Shown here: positions 445-8,152 of the stretch, in pieces
How positions within the stretch are numbered: the stretch's first letter is position 1
Layout: the number at the start of each line of letters is the position of its first letter
Virus genome (UHGV): UHGV-0230849
Reading direction: 5' to 3' (one strand)
Length of the DNA stretch: 39,729 nt
Source of the DNA: a virus
The notes under the pieces: generated by a model
The model's input: the letters and a program-made list of their open reading frames with translations, nothing else
What the model was told of the DNA's origin: nothing
The model's database searches: none
Made by a program: the position numbers and the translations under genes

Positions 445-3132
445 CTATTCCACAACATCATCTTCTATCAATTCAGCCTTATTTAGTTGTTCCTTAAGCT
501 TATTCCATGCAGAATCCTCAGGCATCTGTACTCGCACAGAAACGAATTGATTAGCAGGAATGTCGATCGGGTCACCGTTCGAAACACCAGGGATGTCGTT
601 ACGTGCAAAAACGGGCGAGTTATCATGAGTGCGGTGAAACGTTTTCACCAACACAGATCCATCTTGGTTAACAACATAATCCAGCCAGATGAGCGGCTGC
701 TTGTTTCGGTCCTGCGGTATTTCAAATCCACCATCAATCCCCCCCCATGAAGCATCTGCATTCAGACCTACGCAACCCTCAATCAGATATTCACCCAATG
801 CCAGCCGTGTGACGGTTACCCCATCTGATTCGCGATTTGTTTCACTACTACCGTCTGAGAAAATCTTCACAACCGGAGAGGCTTTTTTGATGAAACCACT
901 TGAATCGACGGTCGTGTTCAGCGACGACCATGCCTCAGCCCAGCCTGTGTTACCTGCGCGAATAGCATCGTCTGCGTAGCGGAAGAACAGTTTTGATGTT
1001 GTGGACATGAATATCTGCAACACACGGTTTTTTGCATATCCTGACTCCCATAATGCTCCGTTACCTGTTCCTTCTGGCTGCCAGTTTGTCACCCCACCTG
1101 CAGCTCCTATACTTACACCAGTAGACCAGTCTCCAGCAAATTCTGGAAGATTTAGTGAGTTAGGTGAGCGAATTGATACATCAACCAGACCAGGGGATCC
1201 GAGAATCGACATGCTGCGGGAGGACACCTTAGTAAAAGAGTTGTACCCGCCGTTTTTGGAAATCCTTCCTGTATAATTATTAGCCCTGTTAGTTCCATTA
1301 ACTGTAATTTCCCAGGTATCGCCGTTGATGAAGTCGATCTGCAATAGGCAGAATGCTGGCAGCGTCATCTGTCCTGGCGCAGATGGCCCACCTTCAAACA
1401 GTGGCATATCCTGTTCAAGATATGTCACATATCTACCTGCATCTGTATTCCGCAAATAGTCACAAATAGCCTGTGCCGATGTAAATAGCGCAATACCATC
1501 AGCCGGGTTCACAGGGTGACGGCCAGCGTTAATCACCCTTCCGCGAGGGTTAAATAACTGTGATGAGGCATTGGATAGCGGAGTCATGTCTACTGTTCCA
1601 GGTTCATTAGATGGACAGTTAGCGCGAATGATGTTTAAAGTCCTATAATTTGATCCGCCCCCATTGTCATAGCGAATAGACTGTAGAAGATACAATTCCT
1701 CAGAGCCAGAAATATCACAAGACTGCACCCCCTCATTTTCAGTGGAGTAAACACTCTTCCCTGAATAACTATCCCAGTATGTTTTGAAATCTGCAGGTGA
1801 CAGCAGGTACTGACCTAATTCTGAACCATTAAGGCTGTACTCAATATAACCCTGCAACCCTGCGAAAGTATTTCCAGATCCCGCCGTGGTAGATGCACCA
1901 ATACCAGCAAATATCCGTTGAGAACCAAGAGCGACACCCTGCCGTTTTGGTTTACCGGCTCCGCGACCTCCAACATTTGCATCAACCGTAATAGTCCCCA
2001 TTGGACTGTAAGATCCTTCTATAAGGCTGTTAATATCCAGTGTGTTAAAGATATTGGATACACCTGTCTCAACATCAAAAATTTTCGGCCAACCCATATC
2101 CGCATTTTCGTATATCAGGGTATTACCAAAGCCACTAAACTGATATCGCACTCCAAGGCGTGTTGATTCAGTGAAGTTTGTAATCTGCGTTTTATCAACC
2201 AGCGTACGCGGATCTTCGATAGGGTAAATTCTGATAGTGCGAGATGGGCTGTACGGCAGCAGGATGTAACGCTGTCCTGCCACTCGGTAAACGTGGATGC
2301 CTTCTGGTGCACCAACGTTATTCGGAAAATGAAGACGTGTTACCAATGCTCCTGTTACCCAGTCATGCACCGTAACCCATACCGATGCGGGGTCTAGCGT
2401 CTGCCAGCCGATGTATACCATTCCATCATTGCTGTCTATGTAAATCCCCTGAAATCCCATGGTCGTGTAACCATACTGATCTTTAAGATCTGCGGTAATC
2501 TCATCGTCTATGATGCTGAATTCTAATTTCCAGTTCAGCGGCCTACGCGTACCACTGACATGCCTAGAAATATGAGACAGGTAGCTTTTAACCCCGCCTG
2601 CGATAATGTATCTATGTTTGATCTCAGTAACAATTCCATTTGCAACTGGAGTGCATTTATAGACGCCGCCGTTTATTCTAATAAAATTGGTTCCTGTTAG
2701 ATTATCCCCAATGGCAACGTCTTTTCTACTATTCTTAAACGTCCCATTACCTAAGTCAGTAACAAGCAATGCCCCTTCTACATATTTCAATGACTGATCA
2801 GGGTCATACTTCAGCACATTAGGAAAATAGAACTGCTGCGCACCATACGCATCATAAACAGCCATAGAATGGCCTTGCACGGTAACGAATTTGGCAATCT
2901 GTCCGTTATATACTGGATACCCTGCGGCATTGATGACGATTGGCTGTGCAACATGAACGTGAGAACCATCTTCGTTCTCTACATAAACCTGAATCTGGTT
3001 TTCAGGATTTACCGGGTCAGTGTCAATTTTACCGATATAAATTTTGCCATTGGCTACGGCTTTAAAAGAGCGGGCCATAGTGAAGAGTTGCGAAGGCATA
3101 CTCACTACAACATTGGCTGTAATGTCTGTCAT
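445..3132 (-). CDS. gp9: Tailspike protein, P22 gp9-type head-binding N-terminus with a different receptor-binding body (895 aa)
   Basis: First ~115 aa ([58 protein letters not shown]...) match P22 tailspike head-binding domain from memory; remainder unrelated to the P22 endorhamnosidase body. Confidence 0.9.
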
Positions 3133-3232
3133 TTAATTTGCTCCAGATACAAGGAATCGCCGCAGCATGGCTACGGTGAATTTTGGGCATAAAAAAACCC
3201 AGCCGAAGCTGGGTCGTTGCGTTGGTTATCTG

Positions 3233-4135
3233 TCAGTAGTTATGTACTGAAGGAGGTAATTCTTTATTCTTAAGTCTCATCCATGCGGAAAGATTCGTTG
3301 GTCCGTCTGGCTCATTGATATCAACATCTCGTGAGTGATTGATTAAAACGTCTCTCGCTATATCGATAATACGGGAGAACTCATAACCGCAGTCATGACA
3401 TCTGCCGGAATAGTTCGATTGAATTTGTTTCAGCGCCGGATACAGTTCGCGGAATAATGCCTGTGAGCGGTTGGCATAATCCCATAGCCATACAAGGCTG
3501 TTTGCTTCTTTTGCAGAAAGCTCGTTGGTTTTCTTCTCTTGTTTGCCGATGAACTCACCTTCAAGCACTACCCTGTGGATGTACTCTACGGCTTGCGGTA
3601 TCTGAGATGCATCAAGCTCTTCAATACTTTCCACATTGAAACGCTGATGAATCATTGCATAAGCTTCTGGGTACATTAGATGCTTTTTGCTGACTAGCAT
3701 ATTTACAGCATCACGAAGCGGAGTCCTGTCATCAACAGATGTTTTCTTACGTGCATTTTCTGCCTTTCCCTTTGTCCAGTAGTCATGCAGTACAGTAAAG
3801 CATTCTTCCTGGTACTGAATCAGTTTATCGCGGATGTCAGCTCGAACTTTCTCAGGGTTGATGCTGAACAGCCATCCATTTAACTTCTTCAAAGGAAGGC
3901 AGAGTAGCTTACGAAGCTTCCCATCAGCGGCAACCATATTCATATGAATACAGTTGAACTTATCTAGTTGTTTCATAAGTTTTTGTTGCTGAGTACCCCA
4001 ACTCATTCCAAGGTTTTCAACGATTGGCTTCATCGCAACGTATGCAACTCCGGCAGCCATGGCGGTGATAATTTGCTGACCGTTGAATGGTACGTAAGAG
4101 GTGTTCACTGCTTCTAAAATTGCTATACTATTCAT
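3233..4135 (-). CDS. ant: Antirepressor Ant (P22 immI); ORF extends to 4165 but homology suggests start at [10 protein letters not shown]
   Basis: 300-aa product directly downstream of arc in the arc-ant arrangement. Confidence 0.8.
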
Positions 4136-4455: not shown

Positions 4456-4707
4456 ATGGCTAGAGATGATCCGCACTTTAACTTCCGTATGCCTATGGAA
4501 GTAAGGGAGAAATTAAAATTCAGGGCGGAGGCGAATGGGAGATCAATGAACTCCGAGTTGTTACAAATCGTCCAAGATGCTCTATCAAAACCATCGCCTG
4601 TGACTGGATATCGTGACGATGCAGAACGACTCGCTGATGAGCAGTCAGATCTTGTTAAGAAGATGGTGTTTGATACGCTGAAGGATTTGTACAAAAAACC
4701 CACCTGA
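4456..4707 (+). CDS. mnt: Mnt repressor (83 aa)
   Basis: MARDDPHFNFRMPMEVREKLKFRAEANGRSMNSELLQIVQDALSKPSPVTGYR... matches P22 Mnt. Confidence 0.95.
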   Translation: MARDDPHFNFRMPMEVREKLKFRAEANGRSMNSELLQIVQDALSKPSPVTGYRDDAERLADEQSDLVKKMVFDTLKDLYKKPT

Positions 4708-4722
4708 CGGTGGGTTTTATTA
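4697..4722. terminator. Bidirectional rho-independent terminator (end of mnt and end of convergent accessory operon)
   Basis: aacccacc-tgac-ggtgggtt hairpin flanked by A-run upstream and T-run downstream; mnt stop codon sits in the loop. Confidence 0.75.
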
Positions 4723-5139
4723 GTGCTTGTATAGGTTGAACTCTCTATCAAGCCATATAACAAAAAATGTCGATCCAAGACGATAACCAACCATGGCTTT
4801 CAAATCATCAAATCTAAAAGCCAAGAAATGATCTACGTCTTCCGTTATATGACTGGGGATACCTGCTTTAATTGCACCCCTTGCAATCTTCTCAAATCCA
4901 AGCTTATGCCTACCTTGCTGCTTAATCTCTGCCCATGTTAGTTGACTTAATCTGTATAATTTATCAGCTAAGCCAGCTTTCTCATCTTTTTGGCATTTCG
5001 TTATGCAGTGAGAGCTTTGGATGTAACAGAATGAAAATTTCGGTTTCTTTTGATCTGAATTCCCCCCTGACTGCGGCCCTAACTTTAACTTACCTGTAGA
5101 TTCAGCAGGGGGGATAATCCTTTTAGATTTTCTTGCCAT
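4720..5139 (-). CDS. Small protein (139 aa) coupled to the Panacea-domain gene; candidate toxin partner, C-terminus reminiscent of RelE/ParE-like toxins
   Basis: ATG at 5139 lies 4 nt after the upstream stop; C-terminal ...AMVGYRLGSTFFVIWLDREFNLYKH. Longer ORF-track start (5214) overlaps the upstream gene and is probably not used. Confidence 0.55.
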   Translation of the reverse strand: MARKSKRIIPPAESTGKLKLGPQSGGNSDQKKPKFSFCYIQSSHCITKCQKDEKAGLADKLYRLSQLTWAEIKQQGRHKLGFEKIARGAIKAGIPSHITEDVDHFLAFRFDDLKAMVGYRLGSTFFVIWLDREFNLYKH

Positions 5140-5143
5140 CTCG

Positions 5144-5587
5144 TTAGTTAATCCGAGTTGCAAAGTACTCTGCCATCTCCTTAGAGCTAATTTCAGAACC
5201 ACCAACACCCTCAATATAGTTTGATCTCCATGGTGACTCTTCGTGTGTCATGTTCCTCAGTTTCCAGGCAGAAAATTGCCCAAAAACATCCCAGACTTCT
5301 TCTAATAGCTCTAACTGTTCTTCGCTGAATTTTTCAGCATCAAAAGACTCTGGAGAAGGGATAGCGCCATTACCATATTGTTTATAACGGCGATAAAGCT
5401 CAGGGACAACAGGGCCATGCATCCAAGCTTCCATCTTATTCTGAAAAAGAGGCTCGCCAAGCAACGCCAATGAAAAACCCTGAGCATAGTAAACAAGCTT
5501 TTGTAATTTTAAATTAGAGATTGTGTCACCGCTATCCTCGTCACACCGCGACAGGAAGTAGTCGGCGACATCAAAACAAGTAAGCAT
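5144..5587 (-). CDS. Panacea-domain (DUF4065, SocA/GepA-like) protein, putative antitoxin
   Basis: CFDVADYFL...ISNLKLQKLVYYAQGFSLALLGEPLF...EAWMHGPVVPELYRRYKQYG matches the Panacea signature from memory; GGAGG 7 nt upstream of ATG at 5587. Confidence 0.75.
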   Translation of the reverse strand: MLTCFDVADYFLSRCDEDSGDTISNLKLQKLVYYAQGFSLALLGEPLFQNKMEAWMHGPVVPELYRRYKQYGNGAIPSPESFDAEKFSEEQLELLEEVWDVFGQFSAWKLRNMTHEESPWRSNYIEGVGGSEISSKEMAEYFATRIN

Positions 5588-5961
5588 GAACACACCTCCA
5601 TCTTGATAGCCACAGCTAAGTATCCAACTATGTCAAATGTCATTTAATACTATAACAAAGCTATCAGCAATCCTTCGGAGGCTAACTTACAACCACTTTA
5701 GCGACATGTTTAAACCATTACGTTTCACATTTACTGCATTTTCGCCGAAGTTACCTATAAGGTAATGTCACATTTCCTGCAAGTTTCATGCAATGTTGAA
5801 AAGTGAGCTATTCACTTTTCTATGACACCAAACACCAAAAATAGCACTTTTTGCTAAATCATTCGTCCAAGTTGTGGATGGTTTGTCGTTGACACGTTTT
5901 CACACACCACTCCACCAATAAAGTATCATCTGGTATCCTGCGAAAAACTAAGGAGGTTGGT

Positions 5962-6291
5962 GTGTTAGAAATAGTAGTACTCGCTCTTGGGATATCCTGT
6001 TGCGTACTATATGCAGGGTTAGCTGCCCTCAAGAAACAGGTTAAGGAATTAGATCGCTCACATGAAATTGATACAAAAATTGCGCGATTAACTGAAGAGA
6101 ATAAACACTTAAAAAATTCCATAAGGGCACTAACTGATGACAACTACAAACTGTCCCATGCATTGGCTAAGTGGGAAATAGTAAGTTATGAAAGAATGAC
6201 CGACATGATTTTTTCGTCTTATATGGCTACAAAATCTCCTGAAACATCAGGAAAAGCAATAATTGCAGCCATTGAAAAGAGAATTAAATAG
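5962..6291 (+). CDS. Hypothetical membrane-anchored coiled-coil protein (109 aa), divergent moron-like ORF
   Basis: GTG start with AAGGAGG 6 nt upstream; hydrophobic N-terminus (LEIVVLALGISCCVLYAGLAAL) then charged heptad-like region; opposite strand to the virion operon, preceded by AT-rich intergenic DNA. Confidence 0.55.
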   Translation: MLEIVVLALGISCCVLYAGLAALKKQVKELDRSHEIDTKIARLTEENKHLKNSIRALTDDNYKLSHALAKWEIVSYERMTDMIFSSYMATKSPETSGKAIIAAIEKRIK

Positions 6292-6310
6292 CCTTCCTTG
6301 GCGTTCATTT

Positions 6311-8152
6311 CTACTGCCTGGTAGCTTCGTTAGTTAGGAGAGGGCGAACGGCGTTAGCAGCCTGATTTAACGCTCGCTCATATGCCGGAGTTCCAGGCTT
6401 GACGTTTGCAAGGCGGAGAAGCATGTTTCTTGCTGCTTTGGACTCATACAAGCGCATCATTGCACCAAAACCAGCCTCAAGCCCCATTGATACGCCAAGG
6501 GTCGCAGTTGCGCCAATCGTCCTTATCCTGTTGGCTTGCGATTGCCCCGTCTGAGTTACTACATTTGCGGTGTCTGACCTTGCTGTTTGCTGTAGAACTT
6601 CATGAAGAGCATCAAGCTCTTTCATGTGCTTTCCAGAAAAAATAGTGTTGTAAATTTCACCGCCTGACTGAGATTTCAGCTTATTAACTTCAGTGATGAA
6701 CTTGGCTGGAGAGTCCCCGGCCTTTTCCGCTATTTTGCTGACGTAAGCTGCACGCATAGCATCTTTCCCCTTATCATCCAGTGCGCTCCAGATTCGTTTC
6801 ACGTCAGATGGTTTTCTGCTTAATACAACGGTATTTATAAGTTCAGGACTGGCTTCACTGCTTGCCTTGTTGAGCTTGTTGGCAATGTTTTTATTAAGCA
6901 CCTTATTATAAACGTTTGCATAATCGGAATTTGCTTTAAGGTATTTTGCTGCGTCTGACGCACCGAGGTTTTTTGCAACTGCGTTACGAAGGTCTTTTGA
7001 CATTGCATTCTCTACCATATTGGTAGCTGCTTTTGCCTGGTTGGGGAAGACCATAGCATCTCCCTGAACATTAGATCTAAATGCTGTTCTGTGCTGACGC
7101 AAGAGATCAAACGTAACATCCAAATCAGTTGCAGGGTTTGCTAATTCTTCACGTAGGTTACGCAAGGATGTAAGCAGGCTTTGATTGGCAGACGTCCCAA
7201 GCCGTTCCTGTCTTGCGATCGCTGTATTCAGAGCATTCATGGTATTTGTGGTATCAACTGCGGCATTACCCATTTTATTGGTGACGTCATTGATAACAGC
7301 GCCAGCGGCATCCTTCCGCCCCCTTAACGTGGTGGTCAGAGATTTCACCACATCATCAGGGTTGTACTCACCAAAACGGTCAAAATAATTGCTTACCAGC
7401 TTACTACGCGTTGCATATTGCTCCGCTCGCTTTGAGCCTGTCCCGAGCAAAGCCCCCTCGGCATCCTGAGTAAGGCCGCGAGTGAAAGCATTTTTCGGCG
7501 GGATAACATCAGATGTCATTGGTGTCACGCCCATCGATTCTGATGTGGCAATTTTCTTCGCTACTTCTGGCGCAATATCACCTTTTATAGCCGTTATTCC
7601 ACGCCCTATTCCCTTTGCTGCTGCGGAAAGAACCCCCTGAGCGGCAAGGTTAACTCCGGCATTTTTTGCTGCATTTTGTGCGAAATCGCCTTTCTGATTT
7701 GCGGCCTCTGCCAGTGATCCAATAGCCATGCTTCCTGCCGTTCCAACTCCTGGAACTAAATACCCGCCAATTGTTTCTCCAGTTTGCGCATAAGGGTCTG
7801 TCGGTCGATCGACTGGACGATAGACATCATCCAATACTTTTGGACCACCAAGCCCCTGACTGATTGCATTAATCAGACTTGCGCCACCCTGCAATACGTC
7901 AAATGGTATGTTTACCAGACCACGACCAGCCTGTTCTGCAATTTGCCCTGCACTTTGACCACCAGTGAGCCAATCGCCAGCTTGTTGCATCAATGATGGT
8001 TCTTCACGTGCTGGTTCATTGCTATCCTGGCTGACAGTTTGTTGCTGAACAGACTGTCCAGCAAAATACTCATCAATGGCAGATCCAATATCTTCCGTGC
8101 TCGTACCATCAGGGAAGGTAAATGTCTTACCGTTTGCAGTTACTTTCATCAT
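6311..8152 (-). CDS. gp16: Ejection (injection) protein gp16
   Basis: [32 protein letters not shown]... matches P22 gp16; 613 aa. Confidence 0.9.

Follow-up and report, generated by a model that had tools for sequence, protein, structure and literature searches.

What occupies the interval between mnt and gene 16 in this P22-like genome, and is it a toxin-antitoxin module? The window, by which we mean the whole 39,729-nt stretch of UHGV virus genome UHGV-0230849, carries two minus-strand genes there, at exactly the coordinates (4720-5587) given in the initial annotation. The genome itself looks like a mosaic Escherichia coli P22-like (pro)phage. Positions 1-25000 were compared with INPHARED, and no phage equals the window; the best matches, the E. 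coli phages HZ41, APC_JM3.2 and IME10, cover only ~55% of this region at 95-97% identity. The cassette and an adjoining Arc-family gene were also found, with 99.9% identity, in the chromosome of the E. coli chicken isolate GPEC859.

The upstream gene, panA (5144..5587, minus strand; ATG at 5587, stop ending at 5144), encodes an acidic, stand-alone Panacea (DUF4065) protein of 147 aa. The downstream gene, panT (4720..5139, minus strand; ATG at 5139), encodes a basic protein of 139 aa, and 4 nt separate the panA stop from the panT ATG. The two genes are translationally coupled and inherited together. One nucleotide past the panT stop begins a rho-independent, bidirectional terminator hairpin (4695..4718) that overlaps the stop codon of the convergent mnt (4456..4707, plus strand), a full-length P22-type gene, and that serves both mnt and panAT. 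The hairpin has a 10-bp GC-rich stem and a 4-nt loop with A-run and T-run flanks, and RNA folding gives it -16.7 kcal/mol (z = -3.85). A simple promoter and terminator scan missed it, though folding supports it, and a terminator is annotated at the homologous place in the genomes of Emek and epsilon34.

In P22 the gene order is mnt, orf59a, t_mnt, PsieA, sieA and gene 16, whereas the window has panAT and a divergent 109-aa open reading frame in the mnt-gene 16 interval. The slot is variable, given that sieA is present in only 22 of 66 P22-like phages (PMC10883804). A tblastn search with P22 SieA found no homologue anywhere in the window (best E-value 0.65), and identity of the pair with SieA was rejected. 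SieA and orf59a share with panAT the position and a moron-like organisation but no sequence similarity, and SieA is an inner-membrane injection blocker (PMC10883804), whereas the PanAT proteins are soluble. The initial annotation had described an accessory slot between mnt and gene 16 where P22 carries superinfection exclusion genes, a 4-nt spacing and a bidirectional terminator shared with mnt, and it was right in all three respects.

The assignment of PanA is clear. It matches PF13274 with E = 1.8e-24 (87.3 bits against a cut-off of 25.7 in Pfam) and belongs to phrog_1281 (E = 6e-60), bearing out the Panacea (DUF4065) signature first read from the letters. Residues 58-60 form the GPV motif that Kurata et al. 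call critical for neutralisation (PMC8832971), and a C-terminal segment, M..YF.TRI, is conserved outside the Pfam domain. The protein has a pI of 4.6. A GGAGG stands 7 nt before the panA ATG (5587). Some annotations begin at a GTG two codons further upstream, giving 149 aa, but judging from the sequence this is the less likely start, since it directly abuts the Shine-Dalgarno. RefSeq names the protein 'Panacea domain-containing protein' and calls PanT "hypothetical protein". The NCBIfam model SocA_antitoxin (NF047745) aligns to PanA residues 7-121 (E = 7e-20), with a score of 71.4 bits that lies so far under the equivalog cut-off of 190 that PanA is not SocA itself. No PADLOC defence model matched PanA.

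PanT is the less obvious partner. With a pI of 9.7 it forms an acidic/basic pair with PanA, and it starts with a basic, disordered tail of ~30 residues (the first ~27 are disordered in the AlphaFold2 model), in agreement with the basic N-terminus reported initially. The AlphaFold2 model, built on a 30-homologue alignment, has a mean pLDDT of 85 and a pTM of 0.73 and shows beta1, two helices, a short strand and then a three-stranded antiparallel sheet. Residues ~33-139 are thus predicted to adopt a RelE/YafQ-type (BECR) fold, and the resemblance to RelE/ParE suspected in the C-terminus is upheld by the model. All structural neighbours of PanT are growth-arresting toxins, and the predicted structure has the RelE-type alpha/beta fold that characterises the RelE/ParE (BECR) superfamily.

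At the level of sequence the resemblance disappears. PanT had no Pfam match at E ≤ 1, and its one NCBIfam match, MAG6450_fam (NF046006), scored 15 bits, under the 40-bit cut-off; the Mollicutes MAG6450 family may be a distant branch of the PanT T1-like family. Searches of the PanA and PanT sequences against PDB chains returned chance-level matches only, a profile of 30 PanT homologues found nothing in the PDB at E ≤ 10, and hhalign of the family profile with E. coli YafQ gave a non-significant probability of 0.8%. A Foldseek search of viral predicted structures (BFVD) found nothing significant. With Pfam, NCBIfam, the PDB profile search and hhalign all negative, sequence-level membership of the curated RelE, ParE, YoeB, YafQ or HigB families was rejected. 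PanT differs from RelE, YoeB, YafQ and HigB in combining the BECR fold with no sequence-profile membership. It further differs from them in its ~30-residue disordered basic tail and an insertion of ~17 residues (87-103), which includes the invariant Pro95, and in having a Panacea protein as partner rather than RelB, YefM, DinJ or HigA.

The nearest recognisable relative is a domain of a defence effector. The only PADLOC match of PanT is to the C-terminal domain of the NsnC HMM: residues 31-135 align to positions 178-279 of 284 with E = 5.9e-6, a weak homology. This PB-BECR1 domain of Menshen NsnC has been described as a YafQ-like BECR RNase with an H-R-H triad and interpreted as a defence effector (PMC12065111). 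PanT is nevertheless stand-alone, without the inPIN N-domain and without NsnA (ParB-DUF262) or NsnB (ABC ATPase) as neighbours; in the window it is accompanied by panA, mnt and the 109-aa frame. The Menshen system was excluded because the inPIN domain and NsnA/NsnB are absent, and PADLOC did not recognise panAT as a defence system. PanT is therefore filed as "RelE-fold (BECR), PB-BECR1-related" and not as RelE, YoeB, YafQ or ParE.

The His, Arg and His of the NsnC triad are conserved in the PanT family as well. The invariant positions among 30 homologues are P33, F35, W69, G81, E83, P95, A107, R109, V117, G118, W129, D131 and L136; conservation is at least 90% at H78, at R120 (Lys in the allele of phage EC.P3), at Y137 and at the C-terminal H139. 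From conservation and analogy, the probable candidate for an active site is a His-Arg-His set made up of H78, R109 and H139. By motif position, R-H78-x-L-G of PanT would correspond to D-H50-P-L-x-G of YafQ and to E46-P-L of YoeB, and H139 would be the counterpart of the C-terminal catalytic His.

Has the pair been seen before? PanA and PanT were defined by Kurata et al. (2022, PNAS; PMC8832971), and the cassette of Salmonella phage Emek is 99.5% identical in nucleotides to that of the window. Dataset S1 of that study places the Emek pair (YP_006560565.1/YP_006560566.1) in PanAT cluster T1, with a stand-alone Panacea domain ('noNTD'), antitoxin-toxin order, a 'Phage' flag and a reciprocity score of 4|5 (PMC8832971). 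T1 is the first-listed PanT cluster, with members in Firmicutes, Bacteroidetes, Actinobacteria, Mollicutes, Cyanobacteria and Proteobacteria (PMC8832971). Apart from the annotated N-terminal extension, the PanT of the Emek YP_006560566.1 pair is one residue away from that of the window (E71D). On sequence, the module is already known and the window copy is the same entry as the Emek pair; nothing substantive sets it apart from PanAT T1, and what differs is the P22-like genome that carries it and the full-length P22-type mnt that adjoins the cassette there. The proposed PanA/PanT class is thus confirmed by domain, spacing, conserved pairing and the catalogued Emek copy, but the partner is not the uncharacterised protein it was taken for, having been listed in 2022 as PanT cluster T1 with the predicted class 'mRNase' (PMC8832971).

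That study also contains the only toxicity test of this pair. Table S1 gives the Emek toxin the predicted class "mRNase" and the result "not toxic", and likewise a second T1 entry, WP_077635758.1 of E. coli MOD1, is "mRNase" and "not toxic" (PMC8832971). For the assay, open reading frames were synthesised according to the accessions, and expression was from pBAD33 in E. coli BW25113, under a strong Shine-Dalgarno (PMC8832971). Neutralisation by Emek PanA was scored 'n/a' (PMC8832971), the toxin having shown no toxicity. A T1 member from Clostridium cadaveris was toxic, and its cognate PanA failed to neutralise it (PMC8832971). Stable complexes were obtained with each of five PanAT pairs examined, in keeping with neutralisation of type II (PMC8832971).

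The published frames are longer than the family-consensus start implies. The Emek construct corresponds to the annotated orf161, whose TTG start lies within panA and puts 22 further residues (MVVLKLVLRRWQSTLQLGLTNE; VVLKLVLRRWQSTLQLGLTNE after the initiator) in front of the protein, and the "-62" gap in Dataset S1 equals the annotated overlap of Emek panA and orf161 exactly. The start common to the family is an invariant Met, whose counterpart in the window is at 5139. The tested E. coli entry probably was the 147-aa form, with eight extra residues (MQLGLTNE), which would match its listed "-20" gap; this 147-aa form occurs in protein clusters P0002 and P0003. Public annotations vary widely, giving panT 161, 160 or 147 aa and extending it up to 62 nt into panA, against the family consensus of 139. 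In Emek, panT is annotated at 3028-3513 (161 aa) and panA at 3452-3901 (149 aa), and in the E. coli phage phiv205-1 panA is a shortened 91-aa frame at 3622-3897.

The Emek extension sits on the predicted disordered tail, and eight additional residues are unlikely to inactivate the protein, so for simple over-expression we regard the negative outcome as probably genuine. The initial annotation had suggested that the 139-aa protein is a toxin and had named a lack of toxicity on expression as the outcome that counts against this. Such an outcome is what the Emek and E. coli T1 proteins gave, in constructs of which the first was, and the second probably was, N-terminally extended. The suggestion is contradicted, in that the sole available experiment, though imperfect (22 and probably 8 added residues), was negative. 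The accompanying idea of a part in phage exclusion or prophage maintenance is speculative.

PanT belongs to a large family of very uniform size that has no Pfam model. A 90%-clustered database holds 182 homologues, almost all of 135-145 aa. A profile search of 1.84 billion representatives of 50%-identity clusters recovered 1518 at E ≤ 1e-3 and 853 at E ≤ 1e-10, and among the best 150 of the 1518 nearly every protein stands alone and has this size. The partnership with Panacea is equally persistent: at all six distant loci that we examined, the panT homologue directly follows a Panacea gene, with gaps of -8 to +35 nt. The pair thus has what is expected of a PanAT, namely two genes no more than 100 nt apart whose partnership recurs, with one partner family, in two or more species. 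The settings of these loci are diverse. The pair adjoins a P22-type portal gene in Solidesulfovibrio (twice in one assembly), a type I restriction HsdR gene in a cyanobacterium, and, in an integron-like array of Vibrio cholerae, cassettes for an acetyltransferase, a glyoxalase and DUF645 of the sort that such Vibrio arrays typically contain. In Aeromonas it lies in a P2-like prophage between antirepressor and baseplate genes, in Pantoea in a prophage-like region, and in an acidobacterium at an ordinary chromosomal site.

Across eight loci the pairwise identities of PanA and PanT co-vary (r = 0.81), and PanA is the more conserved of the two. Two E. coli phages, EC.P3 and E212, have a strongly diverged panAT allele in the same slot, with PanA 71% and PanT 51% identical between EC.P3 and the window. 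In this comparison pS is ~0.8, which is saturated, and pN is 0.20 for panA and 0.34 for panT, indicating that both genes are under purifying selection; we give proportions (pS and pN) here because the saturation of synonymous sites precludes a JC-corrected dN/dS. The allele of the window is at least 99% identical in Emek, in phiv205-1 and in 71 records of complete E. coli genomes, and matches of any kind to the cassette occur in 105 of 5426 genomes. panAT is a conserved, mobile two-gene unit.

A 374-nt region upstream of panA (5588..5961, without assigned strand) travels with the cassette and presumably carries the promoter of panAT and, in the opposite direction, that of the 109-aa frame beginning at 5962. 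Identity in this region is 99.5% with Emek and phiv205-1 and still 94.6% with EC.P3, whose allele has otherwise diverged strongly. At ~5798-5822 the region contains an inverted repeat with perfectly matching 9-bp arms, GAAAAGTGA-N5-TCACTTTTC, and at ~5715-5775 two direct repeats, AAATGTGA; both are possible operator sites. A simple scan found no sigma-70 consensus upstream of panA, Rfam accepted no match in 4600-6400 (sub-threshold, terminator-like matches only), and the fold of the upstream leader was unconvincing (z = -1.9).

Identity between the window and EC.P3 is unevenly distributed. The coding parts of the panAT alleles are 40-75% identical in nucleotides, whereas the 370 nt upstream of panA, in the stretch ~5560-5950, are 85-100% identical; positions 5710-5920 reach 98-100%, and the panT 3' end with the terminator (4699-4758) 92%. 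Either the alleles are exchanged by recombination where the ends of the cassette are conserved, or the upstream region may be a regulatory element under strong constraint.

The divergent neighbour (5962-6291, plus strand; phrog_8100) encodes an N-terminal hydrophobic helix followed by a coiled coil, and its Pfam matches are sub-threshold only (DivIC/ZapB-like). It occupies exactly the position of P22 sieA. The 31 nt that lead up to its start (5931-5961) share 93.5% identity with the corresponding 31 nt of P22 sieA, and the initiation region of sieA thus appears to be used here by a different protein, small and of membrane type. The 109-aa frame may be a separate exclusion-type moron.

So, what does the cassette do? 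Our leading interpretation, which we hold tentatively and at slightly less than an even chance, is that it is the catalogued PanA-PanT(T1) cassette, carried as a moron in the mnt-gene 16 slot of P22-like phages (Lederbergvirus), and that PanT is a latent RNase of RelE fold that defends the lysogen. PanA would bind PanT directly and hold it inactive, probably through the GPV-bearing Panacea core, with a possible part for the disordered basic tail of PanT. Stand-alone Panacea proteins neutralise directly, and their contacts include the unstructured N-terminal region of the toxin (PMC10440598). PanT would not be constitutively toxic; once triggered, it would cleave RNA, most likely mRNA or another translation-related RNA. 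Infection by another phage, with PanA as the sensor, might act as the trigger, and so might the loss of PanA. The lysogen would gain an abortive-infection-type defence, in the slot where P22 has sieA.

Latency is suggested by the two T1 pairs scored "not toxic" and by the favoured role of Panacea as a sensor, which the same group proposed to be its primary one (PMC10440598). Mobility and defence-like contexts are seen in the occurrence of the pair in P22-like and P2-like prophages, in the integron-like array of V. cholerae and beside HsdR. Several observations run counter to this interpretation, among them the negative outcome of the only toxicity test of the pair, the failure to find a sigma-70-like promoter upstream of panA or a recognised PADLOC system, and the higher conservation of PanA than of PanT, which is unusual for a classical antitoxin/toxin pair. 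A sharper version, in which enterobacterial T1 PanT is a PB-BECR1-type RNase that stays harmless until stand-alone PanA senses a superinfecting phage, so that the prophage substitutes abortive infection for SieA, is rather doubtful as it stands.

The pair may instead have nothing to do with intoxication, PanT being, for example, a sequence- or target-specific RNase or RNA-binding protein and PanA its regulator, together tuning the expression of phage or host genes or countering a host defence or a competing phage. The harmlessness of over-expressed PanT and the stronger conservation of PanA would both fit, and the strongly conserved upstream region with its palindrome suggests dedicated regulation. 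So would the character of the family, which is very large (1518 cluster representatives), uniform and stand-alone and is found at ordinary chromosomal sites too. We nevertheless consider this unlikely: every structural neighbour of PanT is a growth-arresting toxin, the NsnC domain to which PanT is homologous has been interpreted as a defence effector, toxicity was seen for one member of T1, and cassette arrays and prophage moron slots are typical of toxin-antitoxin and defence genes.

Distinctly unlikely, in our view, is a classical type II addiction system, in which a constitutive RelE-like mRNA interferase and a labile PanA stabilise the prophage and the "not toxic" scores are artefacts of the constructs. 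The architecture is that of type II (antitoxin first, a 4-nt gap, an acidic/basic pair and a RelE-like fold), and the C. cadaveris member of T1 is toxic. The constructs also leave room for artefacts, with 22 extra N-terminal residues in the tested Emek protein, a -20 nt gap for the E. coli entry that fits the form with eight additional residues, and a family start at the invariant Met equivalent to window 5139. Yet two independent T1 constructs were non-toxic in E. coli, a natural host genus of the cassette, the eight-residue extension, if the second construct had it, is short, hydrophilic and placed on a disordered tail, where it is unlikely to abolish activity, and the C. cadaveris PanA failed to neutralise its toxin. 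The lack of toxicity of over-expressed T1 PanT (Emek and E. coli constructs) also separates it from RelE/ParE toxins.

A SocAB-like type VI arrangement, in which PanA would serve as an adaptor that brings PanT to a protease to be degraded instead of inhibiting it directly, is highly improbable. PanA carries the same Panacea/SocA domain as the type VI system of Caulobacter, the SocA_antitoxin model aligning to residues 7-121 (E = 7e-20), and two modes of neutralisation need not exclude each other (Kurata et al., PMC8832971). On the other hand, 71 bits is far under the equivalog cut-off of 190, PanT is not SocB-like, and five of five tested PanAT pairs gave stable complexes (PMC8832971). Identity with SocAB was rejected on the score (71.4 against 190 bits) and on the partner, which is RelE-like and unrelated to SocB. 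Least credible is a decaying or inert remnant without current function, which would suit the lack of measured toxicity and of a promoter consensus but not the two intact frames with their conserved residues, the cassette at least 99% identical in 71 E. coli records and several phages, the pairing conserved across phyla, or the purifying selection across alleles with saturated synonymous sites, and it is these selection data that make decay very unlikely.

Much of this had been described. The cassette, the Panacea assignment, the predicted mRNase partner and the prophage location are all already in the literature. The published frame boundaries are longer than the family-consensus start. The Emek pair accessions are absent from the supplements of the NetFlax 2023 paper, and a literature search for later work on the pair, on Panacea in P22-like phages and on the V. 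cholerae integron cassettes returned nothing specific. The published Emek negative was obtained with a frame that begins upstream of the family-consensus start, which limits that result.

The partner family, with more than 1,500 50%-identity clusters, is without a Pfam model, and the link to the NsnC effector domain points to concrete candidate active-site residues in PanT. The sieA slot of P22-like phages, with lysogens of P22/Salmonella or of E. coli, offers a tractable setting in which to look for triggers of a stand-alone Panacea module. If PanT is indeed a latent enzyme triggered by phage, this would explain the negative toxicity assays of 2022. It would also provide a first natural trigger and a biological role for the stand-alone Panacea 'sensor', and Panacea toxin-antitoxin pairs would be mechanistically linked to the effector domain of Menshen.
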